Source of the DNA: Polaromonas sp.
GTDB taxonomy: Bacteria > Pseudomonadota > Gammaproteobacteria > Burkholderiales > Burkholderiaceae_C
DNA length: 64,000 nt
Assembly (NCBI GenBank): GCA_031386895.1
Contig: JANNCT010000041.1
Span: forward strand, 881 to 64,880
Reading direction: 5' to 3'
The translations under genes were made by a program, and so were the position numbers. Positions 5,436 through 39,827 of the stretch are shown here, piece after piece. Under the pieces are notes generated by a model that was given only the letters and a program-made list of their open reading frames with translations, ran no database searches and was not told where the DNA came from. Positions within the stretch are counted from its first letter, which is position 1; each line of letters starts with the position of its first letter.

Positions 5436-7295
5436 TTACCGCTTCACAGGCGGCAAGTCCGTACAACTTCCATGCGCGACCTCAGCCGCCATTCCAATCG
5501 ATTCCCCAAGCGTGGGGTGTGGGTGAATCGTTTTGCCGATGTCGATTGCATCAGCACCCATTTCAATAGCCAACGCAATCTCACCAATCATGTCGCCCGC
5601 ATGGGTGCCGACCATGCCGCCGCCCAGTATTTTGCCGTGGCCGTGTGCCTCGGGGCTGTCATCAAACAGCAGTTTGGTGACGCCTTCGTCCCGGCCGTTG
5701 GCAATGGCGCGGCCTGATGCTGTCCAGGGGAACAGGCCTTTTTTGATCTTGATGCCTTTTGCCTTGGCCTCGTCTTCCGTCAGGCCGACCCATGCGACTT
5801 CGGGGTCGGTGTAGGCGACGCTTGGGATGACTCTGGCGTTGAAGGCGGCGCTGGCGAGTTCTTTGTTGCCTTGCAGTTCGCCTGCGATGACTTCAGCGGC
5901 GACATGCCCTTCATGCACCGCCTTGTGCGCGAGCATGGGCTGACCAATGATGTCGCCGATGGCGAAGATGTGGGACACGTTGGTGCGCATCTGGATATCG
6001 ACGTTGATGAAGCCGCGGTCTGTGACGGCTACGCCTGCCTTTTCAGCGGCGAGCTTTTTGCCGTTGGGGGTGCGGCCTACGGCTTGCAGTACCAGGTCGT
6101 AGGTTTGTGGCTCTGGTGCCGCAACGCTTGCGTTGCCTCCAGCTTCGCCCGGCTCAGAGCTTTCAAACGTAACTTCGATACCAGCGGGCTTCGCCTTGGC
6201 ACCCACCGTTTTGGTTTTCAGCATGATGTTGTCAAAACGCGGCGCGTTCATCTTTTGCCAGATTTTGACCAGGTCGCGGTCAGCGCCTTGCATCAGGCCG
6301 TCCATCATTTCCACCACGTCCAGCCGTGCGCCCAGCGTGCTGTAGACCGTGCCCATTTCCAGACCGATGATGCCGCCGCCCAGAATCAACATGCGCTTGG
6401 GCACTTCTTTCAAGCCCAATGCGCCGGTGGAATCGACCACGCGCGGGTCGTCGGGCATGAAGGGCAAGCGTACAGCCTGGCTGCCTGCGGCGATGATGCA
6501 GTTTTTAAACGCAATAGTCTGGCTTTTTCCAGTTTTTTCCTGACCCTGCGCACCACTGGTTTCTTCAACCCGCAAATGGTTTGCCCCCACGAATTGGCCG
6601 ACACCGCGCACCACAGTTACCTTGCGCATTTTGGCCATCGCTGCCAGGCCGCCGGTGAGCTTGCCGATAACCTTGTCTTTGTGGCTGCGCAGCATGTCGA
6701 TGTTGACTTTGGGCGGGCCAAACTCAATGCCCAATGCGCCCAGGTGGCTGACTTCGTCCATCACTGCTGCTACGTGCAGCAATGCTTTCGACGGGATGCA
6801 GCCGACGTTCAGGCACACACCGCCCAGCGCGGCGTAACGCTCAACCAAAATGACTTTCAACCCTAGATCCGCCGCGCGGAAAGCAGCGCTGTAGCCGCCT
6901 GGGCCTGCGCCGAGTACCAGCAGGTCGCAGTCCAGATCGGCTGTGCCTGCGAAGCTGTTTGCAACTGGTGTTTTTGTAGCAACAGATGCTACTATTTCAG
7001 GAGCTGCTTGCGCCCGTATCTGTTGGGCTACAGGCTCTTTTGGCACCATATTAACGCCGGATTCAGCACTTTCAACACTTAAAACGACAGATCCTTGTTT
7101 GACCTTGTCGCCCAGCTTGACGTTGATCGACTTGACCACGCCCGCACTTGACGACGGAATTTCCATCGACGCTTTGTCGCTTTCAACGGTCAGCAAACTC
7201 TGGTCAACCTTGATGGTGTCGCCGACTTTCACCAGCAGTTCAATCACAGTGACTTCGTCAAAATCGCCAATATCGGGCACTTTAATTTCGAGCAT
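5436..7295 (-). CDS. lpdA: Dihydrolipoyl dehydrogenase (E3) with N-terminal lipoyl domain
   Basis: 619 aa. The N-terminal lipoyl domain carries [12 protein letters not shown]. Then come the FAD site [10 protein letters not shown], the redox disulfide [13 protein letters not shown] and the C-terminal HPHPTLGE. Confidence 0.95.
6989..7035 (+). repeat. 47-bp dispersed repeat, copy A (perfect 18-nt core), in frame in the lpdA lipoyl-domain linker
   Basis: ctactatttcagg AGCTGCTTGCGCCCGTAT ctgttgggctacaggc. Read on the minus strand as [16 protein letters not shown]. Confidence 0.9.
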
Positions 7296-7297
7296 GA

Positions 7298-7882
7298 CTA
7301 CACCTTCAGTTTCACTGAGTAAATATCGATTGGCCCGCCAGAGTTTTTGTCAAACTCGCAGCCTGCGTGCATGCCGGCCATGGCAACTTCTTTGGCGGTT
7401 TTGGATTTACCCCAAGCAGCATGCATGGCGCCCAGCGCAAAGCCGCGCCCTGTGCCGATACCCCAAAATTCCTTGAATTCAAAAATTTCGCGGTAACTGT
7501 ACAAGCCGTAAATTCCACTGGCATTGGCTATCAGCACAGTAAACTGCATCGACTCATACGGGTCGTTGTCGTCTTCTTTGGTTTGCAGAAAAAAGTTGTC
7601 TTTCAGCAGCGGGTGCAGCTTTAAAAACGTATCAAACACCTCGTCTTTGGAACCCAGCTTCAAATCTTCTTTGGGCAACGCCGTGATAGCCTTGCGCAGA
7701 GCCGGAAAGTGCGCCACGGTGCCCGCCATACCAATGTGGCTGATGCCTTGCGGGCCAGTGACCTTGAAGATTTTGCTGTTGGCTTCGAAGCGGTGCGGCA
7801 AGCGCGTATCACCAAACGTGACCATGGTGTCTGCGGCCATCACGACCTGGCCAGATTTGCGCACAACGACTACTGTGGTCAT
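7298..7882 (-). CDS. HslV-like proteasome-type Ntn hydrolase (BPH-type; no HslU partner nearby)
   Basis: 194 aa. The N-terminus [26 protein letters not shown] parallels E. coli HslV [26 protein letters not shown] (recalled from memory), with the Thr nucleophile right after Met. There is also a [15 protein letters not shown] glycine loop. The ATGA overlaps the aceF stop, and lpdA starts 2 nt after this gene ends. Confidence 0.7.
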
Positions 7883-9579
7883 AACAGAACCCGCCGGAAG
7901 TCGCTCAAAATTTGTCCGAGATAGGCATTAAAACGCGCAGCAGCTGCGCCATCGATAACTCGGTGGTCCCAAGTAAGAGACAGCGGCAACATCAGCCGTG
8001 GCTGAAATTCTGTGCCGTTCCACACGGGTTCCATATTGCTTTTGCACACACCCAAAATAGCGACTTCGGGCGCGTTGATGATGGGTGTGAAGTAACGCCC
8101 GCCAATACCACCCAGGCTGGAGATGGTGAAGCACGCGCCCTGCATTTCAGCCGGGCTGAGTTTGCCGTCCCGTGCTTTTTTGGCCAGCTCGCCCATCTCG
8201 GCGCTGATCTGCATCACGCCTTTTTTGTCGCAATCGCGAATGACGGGCACCATCAAACCGTTGGGGGTGTCGGCCGCAAAGGCGATGTGAAAGTATTGCT
8301 TGTAGACGATTGAATCACCATCAAGCGACGCATTGAAGTCTGGGAATTTTTTGAGCGCAGACACGCAAGCTTTGATGAGAAACGCAAGCATCGTTACCTT
8401 GATGCCCGACTTCTCGTTTTCTTTATTCGTCGCGACACGAAACGCTTCAAGGTCGGTGATGTCGGCATCGTCAAAGTTGGTGACTGCGGGAATGACGATG
8501 GCGTTACGCAGCAGGTTGGCACCGCTGATTTTTTTGATGCGGCCCATCTCCTTGCGCTCAATTGGGCCGAACTTGGCGAAGTCCACTTTGGGCCACGGTA
8601 GTAAGTCAATACCAACACCAGAACTACCTGATGCAGGAACTTTGGCAGCCTGCGCAACCGTTTGTACAGCGCCCGCCATCACCGACTTGGTGAACGCCTG
8701 CACGTCATCCATCGTGATACGGCCTTTGGGCCCCGCGCCTTTGACTTCGGCCAGCGGAACACCCAGCTCGCGTGCGAATTTGCGTACTGAAGGCGATGCG
8801 TGGGGCAGCGCGCCAGTAGGTGCGGTGGTGGGGTTGTGCGCGGGAGCGGCAACAGGCGCGGCTGCGATGGGCTGAGTGGATCCGGGATCAGACGAGGCGG
8901 AAACTGCTGGTGCAGGTGCCGGTGCAGGTGCAGGTGCAGGTGCTGGTGCAGGTGAGGCAACAGCAGCTGCCCCGTTCACCGCGGCCCCTTCCAGCACAGC
9001 AAGCAAGTCTCCAATATTGATCTTGTCACCCAGCTTGACTTTCAGATCTTTCAGCACGCCAGCGGCGGACGAAGGAATCTCCATGGAGGCTTTGTCAGAC
9101 TCCACAGTGACCAGCGATTGCTCAACCTTGATGCTGTCGCCCACCTTAACCAGCACTTCGATGACGGTCACGTCTTTGAAGTCGCCGATATCTGGCACAT
9201 GGATGTCGATTGGGCCACTGGAAGCAGGTGCAGGCGCAGCCGCCGCAGCGGGCGCTACTTTAGTTGCTATTATTTCAGAAGCTGCTTGCGCCCGTATTTC
9301 TTGCGCTGCAGGCACTTTTGATGCCAAATTCGAGTCTAAATCGGCACTTTCCAGGCTCAAAACGACAGATCCTTGTTTGACCTTGTCGCCGAGTTTGACT
9401 TTGACTTCTTTGACCACACCAGCTGCGCTCGACGGGATTTCCATCGAGGCTTTGTCTGACTCAACTGTCAGCAGCGACTGGTCTGCCTTGATAGTGTCGC
9501 CGGGCTTTACCAACAGCTCAATAACGGTAACTTCATCAAAATCACCAATGTCTGGAACTGCAATATCTATGGTTGCCAT
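7879..9579 (-). CDS. aceF: Dihydrolipoamide acetyltransferase (E2) of pyruvate dehydrogenase, two lipoyl domains
   Basis: 566 aa. It has two [12 protein letters not shown] lipoyl domains, Ala/Pro linkers including (AP)n, a subunit-binding domain (SPSVRKFARELGV) and the catalytic motif DHRVIDGA. Confidence 0.95.
   Translation of the reverse strand: MATIDIAVPDIGDFDEVTVIELLVKPGDTIKADQSLLTVESDKASMEIPSSAAGVVKEVKVKLGDKVKQGSVVLSLESADLDSNLASKVPAAQEIRAQAASEIIATKVAPAAAAAPAPASSGPIDIHVPDIGDFKDVTVIEVLVKVGDSIKVEQSLVTVESDKASMEIPSSAAGVLKDLKVKLGDKINIGDLLAVLEGAAVNGAAAVASPAPAPAPAPAPAPAPAVSASSDPGSTQPIAAAPVAAPAHNPTTAPTGALPHASPSVRKFARELGVPLAEVKGAGPKGRITMDDVQAFTKSVMAGAVQTVAQAAKVPASGSSGVGIDLLPWPKVDFAKFGPIERKEMGRIKKISGANLLRNAIVIPAVTNFDDADITDLEAFRVATNKENEKSGIKVTMLAFLIKACVSALKKFPDFNASLDGDSIVYKQYFHIAFAADTPNGLMVPVIRDCDKKGVMQISAEMGELAKKARDGKLSPAEMQGACFTISSLGGIGGRYFTPIINAPEVAILGVCKSNMEPVWNGTEFQPRLMLPLSLTWDHRVIDGAAAARFNAYLGQILSDFRRVLL
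9267..9313 (+). repeat. 47-bp dispersed repeat, copy B (perfect core), in frame in the aceF first linker
   Basis: ctattatttcaga AGCTGCTTGCGCCCGTAT ttcttgcgctgcaggc. Read as PAAQEIRAQAASEIIA. Confidence 0.9.
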
Positions 9580-9657
9580 GGTGTCTCTTCTCCAATCAGT
9601 TGGGGACAGAGCAACAAATCGATTTGCGTATTTGTTGGTCTTTCCCGCAAAAATAAG

Positions 9658-12399
9658 TTATGCGTAAAGCGGGTTGATTTTGTCGACGGCGATACCGTAT
9701 TTTTTAATCGCCTCGGCCACTTTGGCGACTGGCACGGTGCCTTCTTCGCTCAGCGCTTTGAGCGCCGCCACCACGATGTAATGGCGGTTGATTTCAAAAT
9801 GCTCGCGCAATTTACTGCGGAAGTCGCTGCGACCAAATCCGTCGGTACCCAGCACCTTGAAGGTGCGCCCTTTGGGAATGTAGTTGCGAATCTGTTCGGC
9901 AAAAGCCTTCATGTAGTCGGTAGACGCAATGACCGGCCCCAGGTGCTTTTCCAGCTGCTGGCCAACGAACGGGACGCGGGCAGCTTCAAGCGGGTGTAGC
10001 AAGCTCCAGCGATCAGCATCTTGACCATCGCGCGCCAGTTCGTTAAAGCTTGGGCAGCTCCAAACGTTGGCGGCGACGCCCCACTCTTTTTCCAGCAGCT
10101 CTTGCGCTGCAATTGATTCGCGCAGTATGGTGCCTGAGCCCAACAACTGAACACGCGGCGCATTGGCTGCGGCGGTGTCTGCACCCGGCTTGCACAAATA
10201 CATGCCCTTGATGATCTGCTCTTCAGTACCAGGCGTGAGGCCTGGCATGGCATAGTTTTCATTGAGCAGTGTCAAATAAAAATACACGTTGTCTTGCTTT
10301 TCCACCATGCGTTTTAGGCCGTGGTGCAAGATCACGCCAACTTCGTGTGCGAAGGTTGGGTCGTAGGAAATGCAGTTGGGAATCGTGCCAGCCATGATGT
10401 GGCTGTGGCCGTCTTCGTGCTGCAGGCCTTCACCGTTGAGCGTGGTGCGCCCTGACGTGCCGCCCAACAAAAAGCCGCGCGCCTGCATATCGCCCGCAGC
10501 CCAGGCCAGGTCGCCGACACGCTGAAAGCCGAACATGGAGTAATACACATAAAACGGAATCATGATGCGGTTGTTGGTTGAGTACGACGTGGCCGCTGCA
10601 ATCCAGCTGCTCATGCCGCCCGCTTCATTGATGCCCTCTTGCAGAATTTGACCCTTGGTGTCTTCTTTGTAGTACATCACCTGGTCTTTATCAACCGGTG
10701 TGTATTTTTGGCCATCGGGGTTGTAAATGCCGATCTGGCGGAACAAGCCTTCCATGCCAAATGTGCGGGCTTCATCGACCAAAATTGGCACCACCCGCGG
10801 GCCCAGCGCCTGGTCGCGCAGCAACTGCGTCAAAAAGCGAACGTAGGCTTGCGTGGTTGAAATTTCACGGCCTTCCGGCGTTGGCTCCATCACCGATTTA
10901 AACGTGTCCAGCGCAGGCACGGTGAAGCTTTCATCGGCCTTGGTGCGGCGGTGCGGCAGGTAGCCACCCAGGGCCTTGCGCCGCTCGTGCAGGTAGCGCA
11001 TTTCAGGCGTGTCGTCGGCTGGTTTGTAAAACGGAATGTCGGCCAGCTGGCTGTCAGGAATCGGAATACCAAAGCGGTCGCGGAAGGCCTTGATATCGTC
11101 GTCAGACAACTTTTTGGTTTGGTGAACGTTGTTTTTGCCTTCACCGATTTTGCCCATGCCAAAACCTTTGACGGTTTTGATGAGAAGCACCGTCGGCTGA
11201 CCAACGTGTTTAACTGCTGCGTGAAACGCGGCGTAGACTTTTTGCGAATCATGCCCGCCACGGCGCAAATTAAAGATGTCGTCGTCGCTCATTTTGGCAA
11301 CCATCTCCAGCGTTTTCGGGTTCTGGCCAAAGAAGTGTTTGCGCACGTAGGCACCGTCGTTGGCCTTCATGGCTTGGTAGTCGCCGTCGAGCGTATCCAT
11401 CATGACTTTTTTGAGCGCGCCGTCTTTGTCGCGCGCCAACAAGGGGTCCCAGCCGTTACCCCAAATCAACTTCAATACGTTCCAGCCAGAGCCGCGAAAC
11501 TCACCTTCCAGCTCTTGAATAATTTTGCCGTTGCCGCGCACCGGGCCATCCAAGCGCTGCAGGTTGCAGTTGATGACGAAGATCAGGTTGTCCAAGCGCT
11601 CACGTGCTGCCAGGCCAATGGCGCCGAGCGATTCAACCTCGTCCATTTCGCCATCACCGCAAAACACCCAGACTTTTCGGTTGGCGGTGTCAGCAATGCC
11701 GCGTGCGTGCAGGTACTTTAAAAACCGCGCCTGATAAATAGCCATCAGCGGGCCCAGTCCCATTGACACCGTGGGGAACTGCCAAAACTCAGGCATTAAT
11801 TTAGGGTGCGGGTAGCTCGACAAGCCCTTGCCATCGACTTCTTGCCTGAAGTTCAGCAACTGCTCTTCAGTTAGCCGCCCTTCAAGGTAAGCACGCGCGT
11901 AAACACCGGGCGATACGTGGCCTTGTATGTACAGACAGTCGCCGCCGTGCTCTTTGCCAGGTTCATTCGACTCGGCATGCCAGAAGTGGTTAAAGCCCGC
12001 GCCAAACAAACTGGCCAGCGACGCAAATGAGCCAATATGCCCACCCAAGTCACCGCCATCCGCCGGGTGCAGCCTGTTGGCTTTAACGACCATGGCCATC
12101 GCGTTCCACCGCATGTAGGCGCGCAGTCGCTTTTCAATTTCAAGATTTCCGGGTGAGCGTTCTTCCTGGTCAGGTTCCAGCGTGTTGACATATCCGGTGG
12201 TGGCTGAAAACGGCATGTCAATACTGCTCTGGCGGGCGTGCTCCAGCAGTTGCTCGAGTAAAAAATGTGCACGCTCCGGGCCTTCGCTGTCGATGACCGC
12301 GGACAGCGCGTCCAGCCACTCGCGGGTTTCTTGTGCGTCCTGGTCCAGTGCGCTGTTCGCGCTGCTGCCTGAATCGGTGGGAATGGGGTTGGCTGCCAT
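9658..12399 (-). CDS. aceE: Pyruvate dehydrogenase E1 component (homodimeric type)
   Basis: Long ORF 9658..12426. The preferred start is the ATG at 12399 (MAANPIPTDS), preceded by AGGAGA 7 nt upstream. The sequence is typical AceE (GHISSF-like GGHIGSFASLA, ThDP motif GDGEMDE). Confidence 0.93.
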   Translation of the reverse strand: MAANPIPTDSGSSANSALDQDAQETREWLDALSAVIDSEGPERAHFLLEQLLEHARQSSIDMPFSATTGYVNTLEPDQEERSPGNLEIEKRLRAYMRWNAMAMVVKANRLHPADGGDLGGHIGSFASLASLFGAGFNHFWHAESNEPGKEHGGDCLYIQGHVSPGVYARAYLEGRLTEEQLLNFRQEVDGKGLSSYPHPKLMPEFWQFPTVSMGLGPLMAIYQARFLKYLHARGIADTANRKVWVFCGDGEMDEVESLGAIGLAARERLDNLIFVINCNLQRLDGPVRGNGKIIQELEGEFRGSGWNVLKLIWGNGWDPLLARDKDGALKKVMMDTLDGDYQAMKANDGAYVRKHFFGQNPKTLEMVAKMSDDDIFNLRRGGHDSQKVYAAFHAAVKHVGQPTVLLIKTVKGFGMGKIGEGKNNVHQTKKLSDDDIKAFRDRFGIPIPDSQLADIPFYKPADDTPEMRYLHERRKALGGYLPHRRTKADESFTVPALDTFKSVMEPTPEGREISTTQAYVRFLTQLLRDQALGPRVVPILVDEARTFGMEGLFRQIGIYNPDGQKYTPVDKDQVMYYKEDTKGQILQEGINEAGGMSSWIAAATSYSTNNRIMIPFYVYYSMFGFQRVGDLAWAAGDMQARGFLLGGTSGRTTLNGEGLQHEDGHSHIMAGTIPNCISYDPTFAHEVGVILHHGLKRMVEKQDNVYFYLTLLNENYAMPGLTPGTEEQIIKGMYLCKPGADTAAANAPRVQLLGSGTILRESIAAQELLEKEWGVAANVWSCPSFNELARDGQDADRWSLLHPLEAARVPFVGQQLEKHLGPVIASTDYMKAFAEQIRNYIPKGRTFKVLGTDGFGRSDFRSKLREHFEINRHYIVVAALKALSEEGTVPVAKVAEAIKKYGIAVDKINPLYA

Positions 12400-12427
12400 G
12401 TTGTGTCTCCTGCGATAACTTTGCACG

Positions 12428-15224: not shown

Positions 15225-15262
15225 GCTGTATAGATAAAAGAGTTTGTTAAAGAAAGTTTGCT

Positions 15263-15889: not shown

Positions 15890-15907
15890 TTCACCTCTTC
15901 CAAATTG

Positions 15908-15954
15908 CTATATATTTTATAGCTGCTTGCGCCCGTATCCATTTGGCTAACGGG
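15908..15954 (+). repeat. 47-bp dispersed repeat, copy C (perfect core), intergenic between the response regulator and folD
   Basis: ctatatattttat AGCTGCTTGCGCCCGTAT ccatttggctaacggg, followed by cgtttt. The segment GCCCGT..ACGGGC can pair. Confidence 0.9.
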
Positions 15955-15984
15955 CGTTTTTACTTGTAAATTCAAAAAATAGCC

Positions 15985-16851
15985 ATGACAGCCCAAATCA
16001 TCGACGGTATCGCCCTATCCAAACAACTGCGACTGAACGTCGCCCAGCGCGCCGCCGCCCTGCGCGCTCGCGGTGTGACGCCTGGCCTGGCAGTGGTGTT
16101 GGTGGGCGAGAACCCGGCCAGCCAGGTGTACGTTCGCAACAAGGTCAAAGCCTGCGAAGACAACGGCATTTACTCAGTACTTGACCGGCACCCCGCCACT
16201 TTGAGCGAGGCTGACCTCTTGGCGCGCGTTGATGCGTTGAACAACGACCCCGCCATACACGGCATATTGGTGCAGCTGCCACTACCCCCGCACATTGACG
16301 CGCACAAGGTGATTGAAGCGATTGCGCCCGCCAAAGACGTTGACGGATTTCACGTGGCCAGCGCTGGCGCATTGATGGTGGGCCAGCCAGGGTTTTGGCC
16401 CTGCACGCCCTACGGCTGCATGAAGATGCTCGAAAGCATCGCTAACCACGAAGGGGGCAAAGGCTATGACCTCAAAGGCAAACACGCAGTAGTCATTGGC
16501 CGCAGCAACATCGTCGGCAAGCCCATGGCGCTCATGCTTCTGCAAAAAAACGCCACAGTCACTGTTTGCCACAGCGCCACTGCAGACTTGAAAGCCATGA
16601 CGCTGCAAGCCGACGTGATCGTTGCTGCAGTGGGCAAGCGCAATGTTTTAACTGCCGACATGGTCAAGCCCGGCGCGGTGGTGATTGATGTTGGCATGAA
16701 CCGCGACGACAACGGCAAGCTGTGCGGTGATGTCGATTTTGATGCTGTGAGCAAGGTCGCGGGCTACATTACACCGGTGCCGGGCGGTGTGGGGCCGATG
16801 ACGATCACCATGTTACTGGTCAATACTTTGGAAGCTGCAGAGCGCTTGTAA
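15985..16851 (+). CDS. folD: Bifunctional methylenetetrahydrofolate dehydrogenase/cyclohydrolase
   Basis: 288 aa. Contains [23 protein letters not shown] and [11 protein letters not shown]. Confidence 0.95.
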
Positions 16852-16957: not shown

Positions 16958-17404
16958 CTACCCTTCGCGTTGAACTCCTCGCGTTTCAGCTCGGCTTAAA
17001 CCCCAAAGCGCAAACCCCGCACACAACCACTGGCCGAAACACATCGCGGTGCCCAGGCCGTGCAGCAGCTTTAAATTACCACCATCAGCGCGCGCGCTGA
17101 CGATGCGCGGTGACAAGCCAAACTCCACCAGTACTGCCAGCAGCAGCCCAGTTACTATAAATTTAATAGCTGCTTGCGCCCGTATATCTTGGGCTACAGC
17201 TTCTTTTTGGTTGTAAATCAGAAGTAAAAACATGGCGCAGGCAATACTAAGCCAGGTTTGTGCAGTAAAAAGTTTGGCCGCCATCTGCCCTGCTGCTGCC
17301 GGGCTGGGCAAGTGTGAAAAGAGCATCGGCACGACCATAAAACCCAGCGCAGTCAGGCTGCCCCACCAAAGGGCGGCAATCATCACGCCAAAACGATAGC
17401 GCAT
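16958..17404 (-). CDS. Small integral membrane protein (DUF4149-like), adjacent to greA
   Basis: 148 aa with four hydrophobic segments. The family assignment rests on my recollection of the betaproteobacterial greA neighbourhood. It contains repeat copy D in frame. Confidence 0.6.
   Translation of the reverse strand: MRYRFGVMIAALWWGSLTALGFMVVPMLFSHLPSPAAAGQMAAKLFTAQTWLSIACAMFLLLIYNQKEAVAQDIRAQAAIKFIVTGLLLAVLVEFGLSPRIVSARADGGNLKLLHGLGTAMCFGQWLCAGFALWGLSRAETRGVQREG
17155..17201 (+). repeat. 47-bp dispersed repeat, copy D (perfect core), in frame in the DUF4149-like membrane protein gene
   Basis: ctataaatttaat AGCTGCTTGCGCCCGTAT atcttgggctacagct. Read as AVAQDIRAQAAIKFIV. Confidence 0.9.
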
Positions 17405-24228: not shown

Positions 24229-25441
24229 CGGTTGCCAATTTGGAGGTGTCACGCTGCAACTCGCTGTGCAAAGCGGTAAAGCGCTGTTCAAGTGCCTGTA
24301 TTTTGGCAGGCGCCGATGTTTTAGCGTCGACCCAGCCCAAAACAGCTGTGGCCAATGCTTCGGGCGTCGCTGCGTTTTGAATCAGCTCTGGCACCACAAA
24401 ATCCTGACACAGAATGTTTGGCAGCCCAACCCACGGCTGCAGCTTTTTGCGTTTCATGATGTGCCAAGATAGCCAGTGCATGTTGTAGGCAATCACCATC
24501 GGGCGCTTGAACAGCGCGGCTTCCAGCGTGGCGGTCCCGCTGGCAATCAACGTCACGTCGCATGCTGCAAGGGCCAGGTGCGAATGCCCATCAGTGAACT
24601 GCACGGCACTGTGCACGCCCGCCTGCACCGCCAACTGCTCAATGCGCCCACGCAGCACAGGGATGCAAGGCACTATGAATTTAATAGCTGGTTGCGCCCG
24701 TAATATATGCGCTACAGCCTTAAAAAACCTTAAACCGAGGTACTGAATCTCTGAAGCCCTGCTGCCCGGCAGAATTGCCACCACAGTGTCTTCATCACGC
24801 AAACCCAGACGCGCCCGCGCGCCAGCACGGTCAATTTGCATCGGGATAACGCTGGCCAACGGGTGACCCACGTACGTCGCAGCAATACCGTGCTTTGCAA
24901 GCAGCGCGGGCTCAAACGGAAAAATACACAGCACATGGTCAACGCTGCGGTTGATTTTTTCAAGCCGCTCTGCGCGCCAGGCCCACACCGACGGGCAAAT
25001 AAAGTGAACGGTTTTGATGCCGCGTAGCTTGAGTGCAGCTTCCAGGTCAAGGTTAAAGTCAGGCGCATCCACACCTATAAATATGTCGGGCTGGTCTGCC
25101 AGCAGCCGCGTCTTGAGTTGGCTACGAATACCGACAATTTCACGGTAGTGGCGCAGCACTTCTACATAGCCCCGCACCGCGAGTTTTTCGCTTGGCCACC
25201 ACGCGTTGAAACCCTGCTTTGCCATCTGCTGGCCACCAATGCCGAATGATCGCAGGCCTGGCCAGCGCGACTTCAAACCATCGATGAACAGCGCCGCGAG
25301 CAGGTCGCCAGATGTCTCCCCAGCCACCATTGCCACACGAATGGAGCCCCCCACATTTGCCACTGCGTATGCTGCACCGCCCCCCACGGGGTCTGATCTT
25401 CCCGGGGGCGGCCCGTCGGAAGACCGCGGCGCATCATGCAT
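24200..25441 (-). CDS. lpxB: Lipid-A-disaccharide synthase
   Basis: 413-aa ORF. Contains [29 protein letters not shown] and [11 protein letters not shown]. The true start may lie downstream, near [16 protein letters not shown]. It contains repeat copy F in frame. Confidence 0.9.
24673..24719 (+). repeat. 47-bp dispersed repeat, copy F, in frame in lpxB
   Basis: ctatgaatttaat AGCTGGTTGCGCCCGTAA tatatgcgctacagcc. Read as [16 protein letters not shown]. Confidence 0.85.
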
Positions 25442-32148: not shown

Positions 32149-32149
32149 A

Positions 32150-33337
32150 TCAAATCTCCATCTTCCGCGCAAAATCGGCGGCCATTGCACGCGCTTGTCC
32201 ATCAATAGCCAGCAGGTCATTGATGCCGCTGACATGGGATAGAACCAAGCGGTCTAAAGTTGCACGGTTGACAATGTAAATCTGATCGAACCGGATCTTT
32301 TTCGCCAAAAAAGCGGCCACGGCGATTTCATTGGCGGCGTTCAAAACAGCAGTTGTGCCGACCGGCGCTGCCAGCACCTCCCACGCCAATTGCATGCACG
32401 GAAATCGATTCGGATCAAGCGCTTCAAAGGTCATGGCTGCCAGCGCTTTGAAGTCCAGCGCTTTGGCACCGGAGGCCAGCCGACCCGGCCAAGCCAGCCC
32501 GTAGGCAATGGGTACGCGCATGTCGGGTGTGCCCATTTGCGCAACCACGGATGTGTCGAGGTATTGCACCATCGAGTGGACGGTGCTTTGCGGATGGATC
32601 ACCACTTCAATTTGCGCCGGCTGCAGCCCGAACAAATACTTGGCTTCGATGACTTCCAGCGCCTTGTTCATCATGGTGGCGGAGTCGACTGAAATTTTGC
32701 GGCCCATCACCCAATTCGGGTGGGCGCAGGCTTCTTCAGGCGTTACATTGCGCAGAGTCGTCAAATCGCGCGTACGAAACGGCCCGCCAGACGCGGTCAG
32801 AATAATTTTCTCAATGCGTTCAGCCCACGTCGCTGGGTCGTCGGGCAGCGACTGGAAGATGGCCGAATGCTCACTGTCAATCGGCAGCAGCTGTGCGCCA
32901 GCCGATCGCACAGCCTGCATGAATACTTCACCGCCGACCACCAGCGCCTCTTTGTTGGCCAATAGCAAACGTTTGCCGGCTTTCGCTGCCGCCATGCATG
33001 CGCCCAGGCCCGCCGCACCCACAATAGCCGCCATCACAGCGTCAACATCGACGTGTGACGCTATCATTTCAAGAGCTGCTTGCGCCCGTATTACTTCGGT
33101 TTTAAGACCTTTCTGTTTGATTTTTTGGCTTAGTACTTCAGCCTGCACATCATCGGCCATCACCGCAAAGCGCGGCTGAAATTTAACGCACTGGGCTAAA
33201 AGCAGCTCGGTTTGGGTGGCTGCGCTGAGAGCAAACACTTCAAATTTATCAGGGTGCATGGCAATCACGTCCAGCGTATTGACACCGACTGATCCGGTCG
33301 AACCCAAAACCGTGATGCGCTGCTTTCTCATCGTCAT
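32150..33337 (-). CDS. dxr: 1-deoxy-D-xylulose 5-phosphate reductoisomerase
   Basis: 395 aa. Contains [30 protein letters not shown] and HPNWVMG. It contains repeat copy G in frame. Confidence 0.95.
   Translation of the reverse strand: [395 protein letters not shown]
33061..33107 (+). repeat. 47-bp dispersed repeat, copy G (perfect core, right arm diverged), in frame in dxr
   Basis: ctatcatttcaag AGCTGCTTGCGCCCGTAT tacttcggttttaaga. Read as [13 protein letters not shown]. Confidence 0.8.
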
Positions 33338-33349
33338 GTTGCAATACTT

Positions 33350-33374
33350 AGTTCAGTTCAGTTCAATTCAATCA
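33350..33374. repeat. Pentanucleotide tract (AGTTC)3-AATTC-AATCA filling the cdsA-dxr intergenic gap
   Basis: Read directly from the sequence. It spans from the cdsA stop to 13 nt upstream of the dxr ATG. Confidence 0.7.
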
Positions 33375-34202
33375 AAGGCTGACCAGCATCATGGCCAAAG
33401 GCAGCGCTGGCAGGAGCGCATCCACACGGTCAAGCACGCCGCCGTGGCCCGGTAGCAAATTGCTGGAATCTTTGGCACCCGCAGCGCGTTTGACGAGTGA
33501 TTCGACCAAGTCACCGGCAACACTCATGGCCACCATGAACAAACCAGCTACGGCCAAAAACACCCAGCCGTGGCGCGCTTGCAATTGGGCATACAGATTT
33601 CCGTTCGAACGCGAGGCCCAAAAGGATGCCATGGCGAGCACGCACGCAATTGCGCCCCAAACCCCTTCCCAGGTTTTGCCAGGGCTGATGCTGGGCGCAA
33701 GCTTGCTTTTGGTAAAACGTCCCCCAAAACTACGGCCAGCGAAATAGGCGCCAATGTCAGCGACCCAAACCAGCAGCAACACTGACAGCAAAAACTCAAC
33801 GCCCCGCACGCGCGCCTGCGCTAGGGCTAACCAAGCCAGACACAAGGCAACTACGCCAACCGCCAATCGCAGTGTTTGCGGAATCTTGAGCCAAACAGAC
33901 GGGCCACGCGCCAGCAACCAGCCACCGGCCAAAACCCAGGCAGCGCCCGTCACAACCCACAGCACCGGCATCGCCATGCCAATAACTCCATAAAACCATG
34001 CTGTAGCGCATATAAACAGAGCGCAAGCAGCTATAAAAAGTGAAGTACTCTGGCTGAAGCCATTCAGCTTTCCCCACTCCCACGCGGCCGCACCAATTAG
34101 CACGAGTGCTACTGCGTTAAAGGCAACCGGGTTGGGGTAGAACAGCGCTGGAAGCAATACAGCCAGTAAAGCCACGGCGGTAACAATGCGCGTTTTGAGC
34201 AT
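33372..34202 (-). CDS. cdsA: Phosphatidate cytidylyltransferase
   Basis: 276 aa, polytopic. Carries the CdsA signature SVAGDLVESLVKRAAGAKDSSNLLPGHGGVLDRVD. It contains repeat copy H in frame. Confidence 0.93.
   Translation of the reverse strand: MLKTRIVTAVALLAVLLPALFYPNPVAFNAVALVLIGAAAWEWGKLNGFSQSTSLFIAACALFICATAWFYGVIGMAMPVLWVVTGAAWVLAGGWLLARGPSVWLKIPQTLRLAVGVVALCLAWLALAQARVRGVEFLLSVLLLVWVADIGAYFAGRSFGGRFTKSKLAPSISPGKTWEGVWGAIACVLAMASFWASRSNGNLYAQLQARHGWVFLAVAGLFMVAMSVAGDLVESLVKRAAGAKDSSNLLPGHGGVLDRVDALLPALPLAMMLVSL
33999..34045 (-). repeat. 47-bp dispersed repeat, copy H (reverse orientation), in frame in cdsA, read in the sense frame of the element
   Basis: The reverse complement is cttcactttttat AGCTGCTTGCGCTCTGTT tatatgcgctacagca. 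Read as FIAACALFICATA, within a TM helix. Confidence 0.8.
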
Positions 34203-34960
34203 CAGGCGGCTTTTGCGTTGTGATTAGTACGGCGAGCAACTTCAAGTGGCTCGTCAAGCTGGGCGGAGGTCAAGCCAAACCTCCGTTCGCGGGTTTTAAA
34301 GACGTCGATAGCTTCATCGAGCGCTGCCGCATCAAAATCCGGCCACAATTTTTTGGAGAAGTGCAGCTCGGAATACGCCGCTTGCCACAGCAAGAAATTG
34401 CTGATGCGCAACTCACCACCAGTGCGAATCAACAAGTCAGGGTCAGGCACATGGGCCAGCGCCATGGCGCGGTCAAGCGACACTTCAGTGACGGGCTGGC
34501 CACTGGCTATCAGCTTTTGAGCCGCTTGTGCAATATCCCATCGGCCACCGTAGTTAAAGCAGACATTTAGCACCAGACGCTGGTTAACGGACGTGTCCAG
34601 CTCGGCCTTAGCGAGGCCAGCCTGCACCTTGGAAGACAATTGCTTGCGGTTGCCAATGAAGTGCATCCGCACTCCGTTGGTTTGCAAACGGGGAACCTCG
34701 CGCGACAGGGCCATCGCCAAAAGCTCCATCAAGCCGGAGACCTCATCGACCGGTCGGCTCCAGTTTTCAGAAGAAAAAGCGAACACTGTAAGCACACCAA
34801 CGCCGCGGTCTACACAGGCCTGAACACATGCCTTGAGCGCATCAACGCCTTGCCTGTGCCCTGCAATACGCGGCAAAAACCGCTTGGAGGCCCATCTGCC
34901 ATTACCGTCCATCACAATTGCGATGTGGTAAGGGACGGCATTCGAAATAGGCATCGACAT
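34202..34960 (-). CDS. uppS: Undecaprenyl diphosphate synthase
   Basis: The ORF extends to 34990. The preferred ATG is at 34960, with AGGAG 8 nt upstream. Contains HIAIVMDGNGRWA, FSSENWSRP and RTGGELRISNFLLWQ. Confidence 0.93.
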   Translation of the reverse strand: MSMPISNAVPYHIAIVMDGNGRWASKRFLPRIAGHRQGVDALKACVQACVDRGVGVLTVFAFSSENWSRPVDEVSGLMELLAMALSREVPRLQTNGVRMHFIGNRKQLSSKVQAGLAKAELDTSVNQRLVLNVCFNYGGRWDIAQAAQKLIASGQPVTEVSLDRAMALAHVPDPDLLIRTGGELRISNFLLWQAAYSELHFSKKLWPDFDAAALDEAIDVFKTRERRFGLTSAQLDEPLEVARRTNHNAKAA

Positions 34961-35013
34961 TCGGGCGGCTCCTGTCTGAAAGGTCAGCAATGGTGGCGCG
35001 CAGCGGCCAGGTT

Positions 35014-35574
35014 TTACACCGCCATGATGTCGGCTTCTTTGCCTGACACCAGCTTGTCAACTTCAACAATGCAGCGGTCGGTGAATTTTTGCACTTCATC
35101 GTGCGAGCGGCGTTCGTCGTCTTCTGACGCCAGCTTGTCTTTCACCAGCTTTTTAACGCCGTCATTCACATCGCGGCGCAAATTGCGGATCGCTACCTTG
35201 GCGTGCTCGCCTTCAGCACGCACCACCTTCGTCAATTCTTTGCGGCGCTCTTCGGTCATGGCGGGCATCGGCACCCGAATCAAATCGCCTTGTGAAGCCG
35301 GGTTCAGACCCAGATCGGAATCGCGAATGGCTTTTTCAATTTTCGCGCCCATGCCTTTTTCCCAAGGCGACACGCTGATGGTGCGCGCGTCAAGCAGCGC
35401 AACGTTGGCCACCTGGCTGATAGGCACCATCGAGCCGTAGTAATCCACCTGCACAGTATCAAGCAGGCCAGGATTGGCACGGCCAGTACGAATTTTGGTC
35501 AAACTGCTTTTAAACGACTCTATCGACTGCTGCATTTTTTGCTCGGCAGTTTGTTTAATCTCGGCAATGCTCAT
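35014..35574 (-). CDS. frr: Ribosome recycling factor
   Basis: The ORF extends to 35628. The preferred start is MSIAEIKQ at 35574, after GGGAGA. Typical Frr sequence ([25 protein letters not shown]). Confidence 0.94.
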
Positions 35575-35631
35575 TTCTATCTCCCAAATTTCTACGCTAG
35601 ACGTCAGTTTAAAACCTAATCCGTACAACCT

Positions 35632-36342
35632 TCAAACGTGAACCAGCGTGCCTTCGTCTGCGCCCATCACCACACGCTTGAGGGCGCCGTGTTTAAAGAT
35701 GCTGAACACTTTGAGCGGCAGTTTCTGGTCCCGGCACAGCGCGAATGCAGTCGCGTCCATCACTTCCAGGTTTTTGCCCATGGCCTCGTCGAAAGTGATG
35801 CTGGTGTAGCGCGTTGCGGTCGGGTCTTTTTTGGGGTCGGCCGAATAAACGCCGTCGACCTTGGTGGCTTTCAACACAATTTCCGCGCCCATTTCAGCGC
35901 CGCGCAACGCAGCCGCCGTGTCGGTCGTAAAAAATGGATTGCCAGTACCCGCAGCAAAGATAACGACTTTGCCCTCTTCAAGGTACTGCAGCGCTTTGGG
36001 ACGCACGTAGGGCTCCACCACGCGCTCAATGGCAATGGCTGACATCACGCGGGCGGTCAAACCTGCCTTGTCCATCGTGTCACCGAGCGCAAGCGCGTTC
36101 ATCACGGTAGCCAGCATGCCCATGTAGTCAGCCGTTGCGCGGTCCATGCCCACTGAGCCACCCGCTACACCACGGAAGATATTGCCGCCCCCAATCACTA
36201 CTGCTACCTGCACGCCCATCCGGGTAACTTCAGCAATTTCTTCGACCATCCGCACAATGGTGGCGCGGTTGATGCCGAAGGCGTCGTCCCCCATCAAAGC
36301 CTCACCTGACAGTTTTAACAAGATTCGCTTGTAGGCTGGCAT
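35632..36342 (-). CDS. pyrH: UMP kinase
   Basis: 236 aa. Contains [24 protein letters not shown] and [16 protein letters not shown]. Confidence 0.96.
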
Positions 36343-36407
36343 GGGAGAGCTTTCTGATATTGGATTGAAGATAAATTTTACGGCCTCGGCAGAGGCGATG
36401 CGTTGGT

Positions 36408-37322
36408 TCAGGCTGCCTTGGCGGCAGCGATTTGTGCCGCTACTTCGGCGGCAAAATCGTCGACTTTTTTCTCAATGCCCTCGCCCACCACATAAAGCGT
36501 GAACGCCTTGACCGTAGTAGCTTTTTCTTTAAGCATTTGCTCAACCGTTTGCTTGTCGTTTTTAACGAACGACTGGTTGAAAAGGCTCACTTCCTTGAGG
36601 TATTTCTGAACCCCGCCTTCAATGCGCTTGGCAACGATTTCTGCGGACTGCACGGGCTTGCCCGCAGCGGTTGCAACGGATGCGTCTTCAGCCGCCTTGG
36701 CAGCAGCAACTGAACGTTCACGCGCTACCAGCTCGGCAGGTACCTGGTCGCTGGACAACGACACCGGCTTCATCGCAGCCACGTGCATGGCAACGTCTTT
36801 GGCAGCGGCTTCGTCGCCGTCGAACTCCACGACTACGCCAATGCGTGTGCCGTGCAGGTAGGCTGCAGACAAGCCAGCAGCAAAGCGCTGGAAGCGGCGC
36901 ACAGACATGTTCTCGCCAATCTTGCCAATAAGACCCTTGCGCACGTCTTCGACCGTCGGACCAAAGCCGTCGAGGGTCATTGGCATTGCCGCAATTGCAG
37001 CAATGTCAGCCGGGTTGTGCGCCACGATACCGCTGGCAACGCCACTGGCAAACGCCAGAAAACTGTCGTTTTTGGTGACGAAGTCGGTTTCGCAATTGAT
37101 CTCAACCAAAGCGCTGACATAGTTGGCACTGTGGTGTGCAACTACGCCTTCAGCAGTGACGCGCGACGAAGCTTTGCCAGCTTTGTTACCGAGCTTGACG
37201 CGCAAAATTTCTTCGGCTTTTTCAAAATTGCCTTCGGCCTCGGTCAGCGCTTTTTTGCACTCCATCATCGGGGCGTCGGTTTTGGCGCGCAACTCGGCGA
37301 CCATGCTTGCTGTAATTGCCAT
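36408..37322 (-). CDS. tsf: Elongation factor Ts
   Basis: The ORF extends to 37337. The preferred start is [12 protein letters not shown] at 37322, after GGAGA. Contains [12 protein letters not shown]. Confidence 0.95.
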
Positions 37323-37371
37323 TTTTAATTTCTCCATTAGGTAAACGGCTATCCGTTTTCGATTAACTTGT

Positions 37372-37396
37372 AAAAAAGGGGCTACCTGAGCCCCTT
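37372..37396 (-). terminator. Hairpin plus T-tract between rpsB and tsf (terminator/attenuator)
   Basis: The minus strand reads AAGGGGCT-CAGGT-AGCCCC-TTTTTT. Confidence 0.55.
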
Positions 37397-37426
37397 GATC
37401 GCATGGTGCGCAAAGCGCATTGCGTC

Positions 37427-38176
37427 TTAGGCGGCTGTAGGAACTTCCACGAATTCGTCGGAGCTCTCAGGCTGCACCATCTTCACGACTTCACTCGAGG
37501 CGTTGGCACGGCCTTCGATAATTGCGTCAGCAATGCCGCGTGCGTACAGTGCAACAGCTTTTGACGAGTCGTCGTTGCCCGGAATCACGTAATCGATGCC
37601 GATAGGTGAATGGTTGGAGTCGACGACACCGATCAGTGGAATACCGAGTTTCTTGGCTTCCAGAATCGCGATCTTGTGGAAACCAACGTCAATCACAAAA
37701 ATAGCATCCGGCAGCGCTGCCATGTCCTGAATGCCGCCAATGTCTTTTTCAAGCTTTTCGATCTCGCGCTTGAAGGTGAGCTGCTCTTTTTTGCTGATGG
37801 TGTCGAGGCCAGCTTCTTGCTGGGCCTTCATTTCCTTCAGGCGCTTGATCGATGTTTTGACGGTTTTGAAGTTCGTCAACATACCGCCCAACCAGCGTTG
37901 GTCAACAAACGGCACGCCTGCGCGCTTGGCTTCCATCGCCACAGTCTCGCGCGCTTGGCGCTTGGTGCCCACCATCAAAATCGTGCCGCGATTAGCCGAC
38001 AACTGCTTCGCGAATTTCATCGCGTCGTTGTACATCGGCAGCGACTTTTCCAGGTTGATGATGTGAATACGATTGCGATGGCCAAAAATGTACGGTGCCA
38101 TTTTTGGGTCCCAGAAGCGGGTTTGGTGTCCGAAGTGGACGCCAGCTTCCAACATTTCGCGCATTGTGGTTGACAT
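37427..38176 (-). CDS. rpsB: 30S ribosomal protein S2
   Basis: 249 aa. Contains [19 protein letters not shown] and LGGMLTNF. Confidence 0.97.
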
Positions 38177-38439
38177 GTAAATACTCCAAAAGGTTGTGTC
38201 TAAAATCAGCGCTTATCGTCAGAAAATGCTTCTGGCAACACCTTGAATGGCTAATTTGCGATTTACTTCGCAGTTCGGGCGAAATGCCTGCCGCAAAGCT
38301 TGTCGAGTATAGCACCCTCACGGGCCAATTTCACCTCGCCCTATGACCGTTGCTGCCTTGGAAAATATCACGCAGCGCGCCTTAACTGCGTGGTCAGGTA
38401 CCTGCCAGTTAGGTGCCCGCGCACCGGCCAGATAAAACG

Positions 38440-38486
38440 CTACCAAAATAATAGCTGCTTGCGCCCGTATTTATTGCGCTACAGAT
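38440..38486 (+). repeat. 47-bp dispersed repeat, copy I (perfect core), intergenic between divergent rpsB and dadA
   Basis: ctaccaaaataat AGCTGCTTGCGCCCGTAT ttattgcgctacagat. Confidence 0.9.
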
Positions 38487-38555
38487 TGAATTGATCAAGA
38501 ATATGAACACGAAAAAGTTAGTTAACGCGTTATTGCCAAAGCTGGGGCAACAGGT

Positions 38556-39827
38556 ATGAAAATCGCCATCATTGGCGCGGGCATCATTGGCATCACTACG
38601 GCTTACGAACTGGCTGTTGACGGGCATGAAGTGACGGTTTTTGAAAGGCGCGGAGCCGCCGCAGAAGAAACCAGTTTTGCCAACGCGGGCGTGGTCGCGC
38701 CAGGCTGGGTGACGCCATGGGCAGCGCCCGGTATGCCGGGCAAAGTGCTGGGTAACCTGATGAGCCGCCACGCTGCCGTCAAGCTCAGCTGGCCGTTGTC
38801 TACAGGCGACTTGGCGTGGATGTGGAAATGGTGGCGCGCCTGCAAGCTTGAGACTTACCTTGCCAACCGTGCACGCCTTCAGCGTTTGGCGTTTTACAGC
38901 CGTGAACGGCTGCACCACATCACGGCTGAATTGCAGCTAGACTACGACCGCGCAGGCGGCTATACCGTGCTGCTGCGCACTGAAAAAGACAGTCGAATGG
39001 TGCAGCCCGGCCTGGTGGTGCTGCGCGATGCAGGCGTGCATTTCAGCGAAATCGATGCCGAGGCGGTGCGCAAAATAGAACCGGCCATCAACCCCGACAC
39101 TGAATTTTTAGGCGGCATCCACCTGCCGCAAGATGAGGTTGCAAATTGCCGCCAATTCGCACTGATGCTAAAAGACGTTGCCCGCGGAATCGGCGTCAAT
39201 TTCGAGTTTAATTCGACTGTGGCGCAATTAAATCGGGCGCAAGCAGCTATTGTTTTAATAGTAAACAGCAACAGCGGCCAGGATGAATCCCGCAGCTTTG
39301 ATGCAGTGGTGGTGTGCGCAGGCCTGGCCTCAAGCGCGCTGCTCAAATCGCTTGGCTTGCGCATTTCGATGGCGGCGGTGTACGGCTACTCCATCAGCGC
39401 GCCGATTCGTGAGCCACTGAACGCGCCGCGCAGCGCGCTGATGGATGAGCGCTACAAAGTCGCCATTTCGCGCCTGGGCAACCGCGTGCGGGTAGCGGGT
39501 GGTGCCGAGTTGGGCGGATCTTTAACCGGGCGGCGCGCATCGTCCATTCAGACACTTTACAAAGTCTTGCACGACTGGTTTCCGGGCGCAGTGCAGCATG
39601 CCAACACCGGAGCCAGCGTGCAGCTGTGGAAAGGCGCCCGCCCGATGCTGCCGGATGGCCCACCCATCATTGGGGCCAGTGGCACGCCGGGCGTGTGGCT
39701 GAACCTCGGGCACGGCTCCAGTGGTTGGGCCCTCAGCTGCGGCAGCGCGCGGGCCCTGGCCGACCAAATTGCCGGGAAAAAGCCCGACATTGACATGAGC
39801 GGACTGGACATTGGACGTTTGCCTTGA
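38556..39827 (+). CDS. dadA: D-amino acid dehydrogenase (FAD-dependent)
   Basis: 423 aa. Begins MKIAIIGAGIIGITTAYELA (Rossmann fold). Collinear with E. coli DadA as I recall it (PGWVTPWAAPG, LNLGHGSSGW). It contains repeat copy J in frame. Confidence 0.88.
   Translation: MKIAIIGAGIIGITTAYELAVDGHEVTVFERRGAAAEETSFANAGVVAPGWVTPWAAPGMPGKVLGNLMSRHAAVKLSWPLSTGDLAWMWKWWRACKLETYLANRARLQRLAFYSRERLHHITAELQLDYDRAGGYTVLLRTEKDSRMVQPGLVVLRDAGVHFSEIDAEAVRKIEPAINPDTEFLGGIHLPQDEVANCRQFALMLKDVARGIGVNFEFNSTVAQLNRAQAAIVLIVNSNSGQDESRSFDAVVVCAGLASSALLKSLGLRISMAAVYGYSISAPIREPLNAPRSALMDERYKVAISRLGNRVRVAGGAELGGSLTGRRASSIQTLYKVLHDWFPGAVQHANTGASVQLWKGARPMLPDGPPIIGASGTPGVWLNLGHGSSGWALSCGSARALADQIAGKKPDIDMSGLDIGRLP
39215..39261 (-). 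repeat. 47-bp dispersed repeat, copy J (reverse orientation), in frame in dadA
   Basis: The reverse complement is ctattaaaacaat AGCTGCTTGCGCCCGATT taattgcgccacagtc. Read in dadA as VAQLNRAQAAIVLIV. Confidence 0.85.

Follow-up and report, generated by a model that had tools for sequence, protein, structure and literature searches.

Thirteen copies of one repeated DNA motif lie in the 64-kb window considered here (the whole stretch of Polaromonas sp. DNA that was analysed, 64,000 nucleotides of contig JANNCT010000041.1), and seven of them are translated in one and the same frame within protein-coding genes. The core of the motif, AGCTGCTTGCGCCC, is present in 8 exact copies and in 3 copies with one mismatch, compared with ~0.001 exact cores expected from base composition. 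A scan with a weight matrix built from the ~200 collected motif copies gives the total of 13, of which 9 are genic and 4 intergenic. The identities of the motif-bearing genes were borne out by Pfam, and none of the 20 window proteins scanned with it is a competence protein. Reading frames are named relative to the motif, with a for antisense and s for sense, and a0 is the frame of the seven shared peptides. The copies are listed below with the strand of the motif and, where given, that of the gene.

6984..7054, + (gene -): lpdA copy, frame a0, exact core, weight-matrix score 78.7, in the linker after the N-terminal lipoyl domain
9262..9332, +: aceF copy, frame a0, peptide AAQEIRAQAASEII, in the linker after lipoyl domain 1
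15903..15973, +: intergenic copy in the spacer between a response-regulator gene and folD (weight matrix, fold)
17150..17220, +: copy in the gene of a DUF4149 protein, frame a0, peptide VAQDIRAQAAIKFIV, covering a loop and the first part of a membrane helix
23366..23436, +: copy in a TrmH/SpoU-family methyltransferase gene, frame a0
24668..24738, +: lpxB copy, frame a0, one core mismatch, which is the codon of a conserved Pro
33056..33126, +: dxr copy, frame a0, peptide EVIRAQAALEMI, match limited to the core and the 5' flank
33980..34050 (core 34019), - (gene -): cdsA copy, sense frame s1, peptide FIAACALFI, one core mismatch, score 25.5
38435..38505, +: intergenic copy ~100 bp upstream of dadA
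39196..39266, - (gene +): dadA copy, frame a0, peptide VAQLNRAQAAIVLIV
40987..41057 (core 41005), + (gene +): nnr/YjeF copy, sense frame s1, peptide SGAASAQI, one core mismatch
51714..51784 (core 51732), +: degenerate intergenic copy directly past the stop of a short-chain dehydrogenase/reductase (SDR) gene, in a convergent spacer, 3 core mismatches with good flanks, score 64.2
58111..58181 (core 58150), -: degenerate intergenic copy directly past a stop codon, in the convergent spacer between PhoD-like and aldehyde dehydrogenase genes, 3 core mismatches with good flanks, score 51.2

The conserved unit is longer than the 14-bp core, which the first-pass annotation of this DNA had treated as the element. 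Over ~200 copies the consensus extends from about -18 to +52 around the core and reads A..tGCTATtaATTtAgT-AGCTGCTTGCGCCC-GTATTtATTGGgCTA.AGgCc.ATTTgAt.c.taAAAa; in its short form, GCTAT-N-ATTTAGT-AGCTGCTTGCGCCC-GTATTTATTGGGCTA-N-AGGCC..., it spans ~50-70 bp with AT-rich flanks. The density is ~1 copy per 5-9 kb, with 13 copies in the 64 kb of the window and ~1 per 9 kb around the DUF4149 gene in other Polaromonas. An exact scan of one genome per species found the 18-mer AGCTGCTTGCGCCCGTAT in at least 111 genome stretches, nearly all labelled Polaromonas among the matches listed. The 18-mer is carried by just 6 of 2.9 million viral contigs, and neither the plasmid collection nor the phage collection gave a match to the motif. 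An Rfam scan of the window and five loci revealed no family matching the motif, the sole match being a tRNA gene at 47479-47552 on the - strand of the window. Judged by eye, the consensus contains no convincing match to the sigma-70, sigma-54 or integration host factor (IHF) consensus, and the core string was not found in any relevant paper in the searchable literature. The motif family is thus apparently an undescribed repeat, present mainly in Polaromonas. Three DUF4149 orthologues with 53-58% identity (L180, L185, L187) encode W-A-Q-A-A with 0-1 mismatch to the 14-mer and lack the family flanks, so that either chance can produce the core on an AQAA peptide, or the range of the motif exceeds the genus.

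Frame bias and origin of the genic copies

Six-frame translation of the window agrees with the first-pass annotation in that the peptides of lpdA, aceF, DUF4149, the TrmH-like protein, lpxB, dxr and dadA all share a single frame, antisense to the motif, and in that dadA, a gene of the + strand, carries its copy inverted, on the - strand. That all genic copies share this frame does not hold, since the s1 copies of cdsA, which lies inside the range then described, and of nnr had been overlooked; the count is 7 of 9 in a0 and 2 of 9 in s1 (p=9e-5 against 1/6). The peptide of the cdsA copy sits in a hydrophobic stretch reading like a membrane helix. The seven proteins had also been described as unrelated, which has to be given up for lpdA and aceF, where both copies follow the same duplicated lipoyl domain and cluster as paralogues. 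These two copies go back to one event, or they have been kept alike by conversion between both genes. Counted once, they leave 6 of 8 copies in a0 (p=4e-4).

Beyond the window, 46 independent genic sites were obtained after collapsing orthologues and paralogues, and they are distributed over the frames as 24 in a0, 11 in s1, 6 in s2, 3 in a1, 2 in a2 and none in s0 (chi-square against an even spread, p=7e-10). The frame bias is therefore real across the genus, although preferred rather than exclusive, as ~48% of the independent sites are read in frames other than a0.

In regard to the cause of this distribution, two simple candidates could be set aside. Intergenic copies are free of stop codons over -15..+35 with frequencies of 0.69 in s1, 0.40 in s0, 0.38 in a1, 0.24 in a0, 0.20 in s2 and 0.06 in a2, and a stop-codon filter alone predicts 5.6 a0 sites where 24 are observed (p=6e-15), so that the bias claimed earlier survives comparison with expectation. 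Mutational accessibility was rejected as well, since near-matches to the core in motif-free outgroup genes are fewest in a0 and s1 and most frequent in a2 and s2, opposite to the observed frames. The peptide read in a0 is xAQxIRAQAA[I/P]xxI[V/A], with R-A-Q-A-A flanked by Ile, Val, Pro and Ala. In other frames the core encodes S-C-L-R-P (s0), A-A-C-A (s1) or G-R-K-Q-L (a1), of which the s0 and s1 peptides contain Cys; moreover, the flanks of most intergenic copies have stop codons in a1, a2 and s2, and the consensus also has one a0 stop of variable position. Judging from these residues, the a0 peptide would be the best tolerated of the frames, and the shared frame is best read as a result of purifying selection acting on what is translated.

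Comparison of genic copies with motif-free homologues revealed no element-sized insertion at the copies in Dxr, LpxB, TrmH, LpxK, ProA, GpsA and DUF4149. Dxr aligns with E. coli Dxr without a gap at the copy, EVIRAQAALEMIAS over EVLSGQQAACDMAA, and LpxB does the same with E. coli LpxB (5w8n), where the E. coli side reads TAQLLRQTYPDLEIVVP. The sole core mismatch of the lpxB copy falls on the codon of a Pro that is present in E. coli LpxB too, and the motif peptide is widespread among Polaromonas LpxB. TrmH shows a 4-residue gap at the copy against PDB 7qiu. Against solved homologues, the gap is 1 residue in LpxK of other Polaromonas, 0 at the first copy of ProA (ARAQAATKNAAL over ARASTAAKNAAL) and 3 residues at its second copy, while in GpsA the core peptide aligns gap-free with 9 extra residues immediately upstream. 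Additional residues beside the copy, from +3 to +9, were seen in TrmH, GpsA (L016), ProA (L096) and dadA (window compared with L108); their direction is consistent and their number far below element length. Of the 44 [RGW]AQAA peptides in called genes, 37 have the exact 14-mer as their coding sequence, in a count drawn from loci picked for carrying the motif.

The case of DUF4149 is the most instructive one, as here the peptide could be followed into relatives without the motif. The comparison covered 80 orthologous metagenomic loci, and more than 100 Polaromonas orthologues have no indel. In Polaromonas, (R)AQAAIKFIV is encoded by CGG GCG CAA GCA GCT ATT AAA TTT ATA GT, with motif codons that include the rarer CAA, GCA, GCT, AAA and ATA. 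In relatives that are ~70% identical and have no motif copies nearby, QAQAAMKFVV is encoded by the GC-rich codons CAG GCG CAG GCC GCC ATG AAG TTC GTG GTC. The presence of this peptide in motif-free relatives through other codons indicates that (Q/R)AQAA(M/I)KF(V/I)V is ancestral in DUF4149 and that the Polaromonas codons were rewritten toward the motif. Furthermore, among 18 distinct Polaromonas orthologues third positions have an entropy of 0.33 in the five core codons and of 0.95 in other codons of conserved residues, and they are invariant in 3 of 5 core codons as opposed to 3 of 65 elsewhere (Fisher p=0.003), which points to constraint on the core at the DNA level. The first-pass annotation had held that finding the peptide in taxa lacking the motif would speak against its frame argument. 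For at least one gene, DUF4149 with QAQAAMKFVV, the peptide does occur there; the phenomenon at the DNA level stands regardless, and the ancestral peptide explains where the motif can settle. It had also proposed placing the peptides on structural models, and for this one protein the AlphaFold model (mean predicted local distance difference test, pLDDT, 65) places the peptide across a loop and the beginning of helix 74-107.

Taken with the alignments, these codon comparisons show that the genic copies arose by substitution in place and not by insertion. The earlier idea of acquisition at places that tolerate such a peptide holds in a stronger form, the copies lying over pre-existing peptides with no element-sized insertion. 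In Rossmann-type enzymes the alignments would place the copy over a helix end, followed by Pro or a loop and then a strand. The linkers of lpdA and aceF are unconstrained protein in which the motif can settle, and the MutL linker and a linker between two cytochrome c domains, as read from their sequences, appear to be sites of the same kind.

Placement, structure and age of the copies

A set of 199 copies was classed as genic or intergenic by a 3-periodic Markov model trained on long open reading frames (ORFs), which was correct on all nine genic and both core-bearing intergenic copies of the window. By this classification 55 copies are genic and 144 (~72%) are in spacers or at gene boundaries. 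Spacer copies mostly adjoin gene ends, and convergent spacers outnumber divergent ones by 21 to 3, or by 13 to 7 under stricter settings. About 90% of copies are singletons, and ~7% belong to inverted '+ -' pairs with a spacing of 158-171 bp. Nearly all copies that neighbour each other closely are in inverted pairs; same-orientation pairs number just two, with more than 300 bp between the copies, and there are no head-to-tail arrays. The tail-to-tail doublets are located as follows:

L006: 6456-6696 and 7591-7833
L034: 5633-5871
L056: 4410-4650
L085: 604-844
L087: 1124-1362
L107: 5795-6024

The middle of these doublets is poorly conserved, which gives them the look of repetitive extragenic palindromic (REP) doublets (REPINs) or miniature inverted-repeat transposable elements (MITEs). 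Single long ORFs of L057, L080, L105 and L026 hold two copies each, in opposite orientations in the first three and both sense, in different frames, in L026; these ORFs read from sequence as ImuB-like, PutA, UvrD/nuclease-like and a xanthine dehydrogenase subunit.

Within the window, the weight matrix leaves two stretches free of the motif, 1-6984 and 41057-51714. At 1174-5254, a type I restriction R subunit gene adjoins a YhcG/DUF1016 PD-(D/E)XK nuclease gene, with no motif copies. The motif-free part from 41 to 51.7 kb holds genes for RNase R, a radical-SAM methylthiotransferase-like protein, a PhaR-like regulator of polyhydroxybutyrate/polyhydroxyalkanoate (PHB/PHA) accumulation and RelA/SpoT.

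The copy upstream of folD deserves separate mention. Its surroundings (15903-15990) can form a small hairpin, GCTAT...ATAGC, and a hairpin resembling an intrinsic terminator, GCGCCCG...CGGGCG followed by a T run, whose 5' arm overlaps the core. Non-Polaromonas homologues of this site have the same flanks and a variable 6 nt where Polaromonas has TGCTTG. The whole family may descend from this copy, or the site may have suited the motif beforehand.

More generally, two or three hairpins can be drawn for the consensus, which folds modestly better than shuffles (z=-2.2). Base-pair covariation was not found, as variable stem positions pair at or below the level of shuffled controls and often worse. 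A reading of the motif as a hairpin or RNA structure was rejected on the modest fold score and the missing covariation, and the stem pairing, being no better than shuffled, argues that the motif is conserved as double-stranded sequence. No replication polarity was found either: the orientation of intergenic copies relative to local GC skew, a weak proxy in 8-kb loci, is 74 vs 65 (p=0.21), and 31 vs 18 in strongly skewed loci.

The copies are old at their positions. Three syntenic 20-kb Polaromonas loci (L192, L193 and L194) were reached through homologues of window proteins, and six sites were compared (lpdA, aceF, folD-upstream, DUF4149, TrmH and lpxB). L192 and L194 have all six copies at the same positions and L193 has five, all that its locus covers; 4 Polaromonas lineages have the folD-upstream site. 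L108, a species with 85% amino-acid identity, shares with the window the dadA, dadA-upstream and nnr copies and has an exact core at the orthologous dadA site. The two degenerate copies at 51714-51784 and 58111-58181 have orthologues in L195 and L198, also in places where the adjacent gene differs, and some orthologous copies are degenerate in every species examined. Altogether, each of the 11 window copies that could be tested has a counterpart at the orthologous position in other species, and this between-species comparison revealed neither presence/absence polymorphism nor an element-sized indel at the 11 sites.

One lineage departs from this stability. Mean core mismatches over the six sites are 0.17 in the window, 0.17 in L192 and 0.67 in L194, as against 3.2 over the five sites of L193 (ENA ERZ27272753, k141_947499, a 20-kb locus with GC of 53%). 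There, every covered copy is degenerate, those in lpdA and TrmH among them, with 1-4 core mismatches, and the encoded peptides have drifted too. This looks like a lineage-wide loss of whatever maintains the motif and, because all copies in one lineage decay together, the maintaining force would be trans-acting and genome-wide.

What could maintain the motif

We lean, with some reserve, towards reading the motif as a double-stranded DNA recognition motif that is kept at the DNA level, behaves like an uptake signal and owes its frame bias to selection on the peptide. Genic copies originate and are retained in place, through substitutions that are mostly synonymous or conservative and overlie fitting peptides, namely helix ends before a strand or a membrane helix, and domain linkers. 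The dominance of a0 would follow from purifying selection, an Ala/Gln/Arg/Ile-rich segment being tolerated by many proteins. The motif would thus be imposed on genes from outside the protein level, with the shared frame as the footprint of selection. Some trans-acting factor presumably recognises it as sequence rather than as a hairpin, and a genome-wide force, most likely preferential uptake or recombination of motif-bearing DNA, would hold the copies near the consensus.

To our knowledge, genome-wide uptake signals are known from just two bacterial families, Pasteurellaceae and Neisseriaceae. It is conceivable, though we would put it forward only tentatively, that a third, independently evolved system of this type exists in Polaromonas and perhaps in the wider Comamonadaceae. 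A putative factor would read the 14-bp core together with its AT-rich flanks and drive the motif into spacers and, by synonymous rewriting, into housekeeping genes, and lineages like L193 would have lost it. As to the maintaining force itself, we think that an uptake-signal-like drive would rank first, selection on binding sites a close second and an old element of REP or MITE type a distant third. The first rank is given because the known systems with such a signature are DNA uptake signals (PMC2817400, PMC2346458).

Several points weigh against the uptake-signal-like reading. The invariance of the core is overstated, being in part an effect of ascertainment; a flank-only search of DUF4149-anchored loci, non-Polaromonas relatives included, returned a perfect core in 13 of 64. 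The intergenic share of ~72%, in a genome that is mostly coding, is more REP-like, and it depends on gene calls made in the loci with a home-made classifier, checked by homology on a subset. Among ~300 copies there are seven '+ -' inverted doublets with cores 158-171 bp apart, as in REPINs. Non-Polaromonas Comamonadaceae in which no further copies are seen (L133-L191, ~3030-3060) keep the folD-upstream arrangement at this site, and this homologue hints at a spread of the family from a progenitor locus by some copying process. The uptake signal sequences and DNA uptake sequences (USS/DUS) have cores of 9-12 bp, an extended motif of ~30 bp and ~1 copy per kb, or thousands per genome. With a core of 14 bp and a conserved unit of 50-70 bp the Polaromonas motif is far longer, and at ~1 per 5-9 kb it is 5-10 times less dense. 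Finally, competence and uptake specificity of Polaromonas are not documented in the searchable literature.

Alternatively, the motif could be an array of binding sites for a chromosomal protein, nucleoid-associated, terminator-associated or regulatory, with direct selection on each site and genic sites used where spacers are scarce. We consider this possible but rather unlikely. It covers the same facts, that is, origin in place, DNA constraint, lack of covariation and joint decay in one lineage, and the preference for gene ends and convergent spacers fits it well, as does a folD-upstream copy placed on a terminator-like hairpin and kept beyond the genus. However, for a bacterial DNA-binding protein it is unusual to have hundreds of near-identical sites that span 50-70 bp and are not palindromic. 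The irregular spacing, with no copies at 1-6984 or 41057-51714, is equally hard to accommodate, and orthologous copies that are degenerate in all species examined imply that not every site is needed.

An old and now immobile mobile element of REP, REPIN or MITE type, with genic copies as in-frame insertions of the kind known from Rickettsia palindromic elements (RPEs), appears improbable. Its anatomy would suit, given a size of ~70 bp, the GCTA...TAGC and GCCC...GGGC inverted repeats with a GTAG/CTAC tetranucleotide, the inverted doublets at 167-171 bp, the mostly extragenic position by gene 3' ends and the possible progenitor locus upstream of folD; motif proteins are also often slightly longer (TrmH +4, GpsA +9, ProA +3). 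The history does not suit: insertions of element length are missing from the proteins compared with motif-free homologues, the 11 tested window sites show no presence/absence polymorphism, the stems lack compensatory covariation, ~90% of copies are singletons, the DUF4149 peptide is older than the motif, and the plasmid collection holds no match.

The view that the shared peptide reflects convergence or homology at the protein level, with the DNA likeness as a by-product, could draw on the ancestral A-Q-A-A-(M/I)-K-F-V-V of DUF4149 and on chemically similar helix-then-strand segments that E. coli Dxr and LpxB have at the same positions. It is refuted by the intergenic copies, four in the window and ~144 elsewhere with the same DNA, and by the identical, partly rare codons in unrelated genes, to which constrained synonymous sites and a different peptide in the sense-frame copies can be added; we regard it as very improbable. 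A replication-oriented motif like Chi or the FtsK-orienting polar sequences (KOPS), with the orientation relative to genes a side effect of gene co-orientation, is less credible still, since 9 of 11 core-bearing window copies are indeed on the + strand, where most genes are on the -, but orientation does not track local GC skew, the dadA copy is inverted as a0 predicts, and no known polar oligomer comes near the motif in length.

An uptake-like signature in environmental Betaproteobacteria would point to a wider occurrence of sequence-biased DNA exchange, or of another genome-wide drive, than has been assumed. Should an uptake-type system be at work, the responsible factor would be findable by comparative genomics, and the decay in L193 as opposed to motif-keeping lineages offers a concrete route to the responsible gene. 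A non-coding DNA signal appears to set codon choice, and a few amino acids, in the essential Dxr, LpxB, LpxK and ProA. In practical terms, a motif that is nearly Polaromonas-specific among the matches listed may help to flag Polaromonas contigs in metagenomes, while the frame result calls for caution against taking shared peptides as homology.

Comparison with known systems

In evolutionary behaviour the motif resembles uptake sequences, as had been suggested at first. Like USS/DUS, it is taxon-specific and strongly overrepresented, conservation is strong in the core and weaker in the AT-rich flanks, its copies are in genes and spacers, the genic ones by substitution and with a frame bias toward benign peptides, positions are stable between species, replication polarity is missing, and some spacer copies are at terminators or in inverted pairs. 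Genic USS/DUS copies likewise favour orientations and frames that give benign peptides, and protein segments under less constraint (PMC2817400, PMC2346458). Besides its length and density, the Polaromonas motif differs in the ~72% of its copies that are intergenic and in its host family, Comamonadaceae, which is not linked to uptake sequences in searchable papers.

The likeness to in-frame palindromic elements, proposed alongside, did not hold up, as element-sized insertions, covariation and presence/absence polymorphism are all missing. What the motif has in common with RPEs and in-frame MITEs is that one repeat is translated in many unrelated proteins with a preferred frame. However, RPEs lengthen the host protein by 30-50 residues, whereas hosts of the Polaromonas motif essentially keep their length and the DUF4149 peptide is older than the motif.

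Polarity sets Chi and KOPS apart, since the orientation of the motif is not tied to replication and the dadA copy follows its gene and not the strand. The nearest published repeat is BRE (Hot et al. 2011, PMC3110155), a betaproteobacterial element of 75-91 bp and ~69% GC that typically forms tandem arrays of variable number. It is most abundant in a Polaromonas genome (JS666) and mostly intergenic, with some copies wholly within coding sequences (PMC3110155). The Polaromonas motif is AT-rich in its flanks and dispersed, and its core string is absent from the supplementary text of PMC3110155. Going by GC content and tandem organisation in the BRE description rather than by a sequence alignment, BRE is probably a different family.

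The anatomy, on the other hand, is that of REPs, REPINs and bacterial interspersed mosaic elements (BIMEs), with a unit of tens of bp present in hundreds of copies per genome, a preference for spacers by gene 3' ends and in convergent gene pairs, short inverted repeats, the GTAG/CTAC tetranucleotide and occasional inverted doublets. The low density and the possible progenitor site upstream of folD are REP-like as well. Unlike REPs and REPINs, the motif is not confined to spacers, being genic in 9 of 13 window copies and 55 of 199 overall, in frame and without insertion, and its stems lack covariation, its copies are mostly singletons and all those tested are positionally ancient. The motif family thus combines USS-like evolution with REP-like anatomy.

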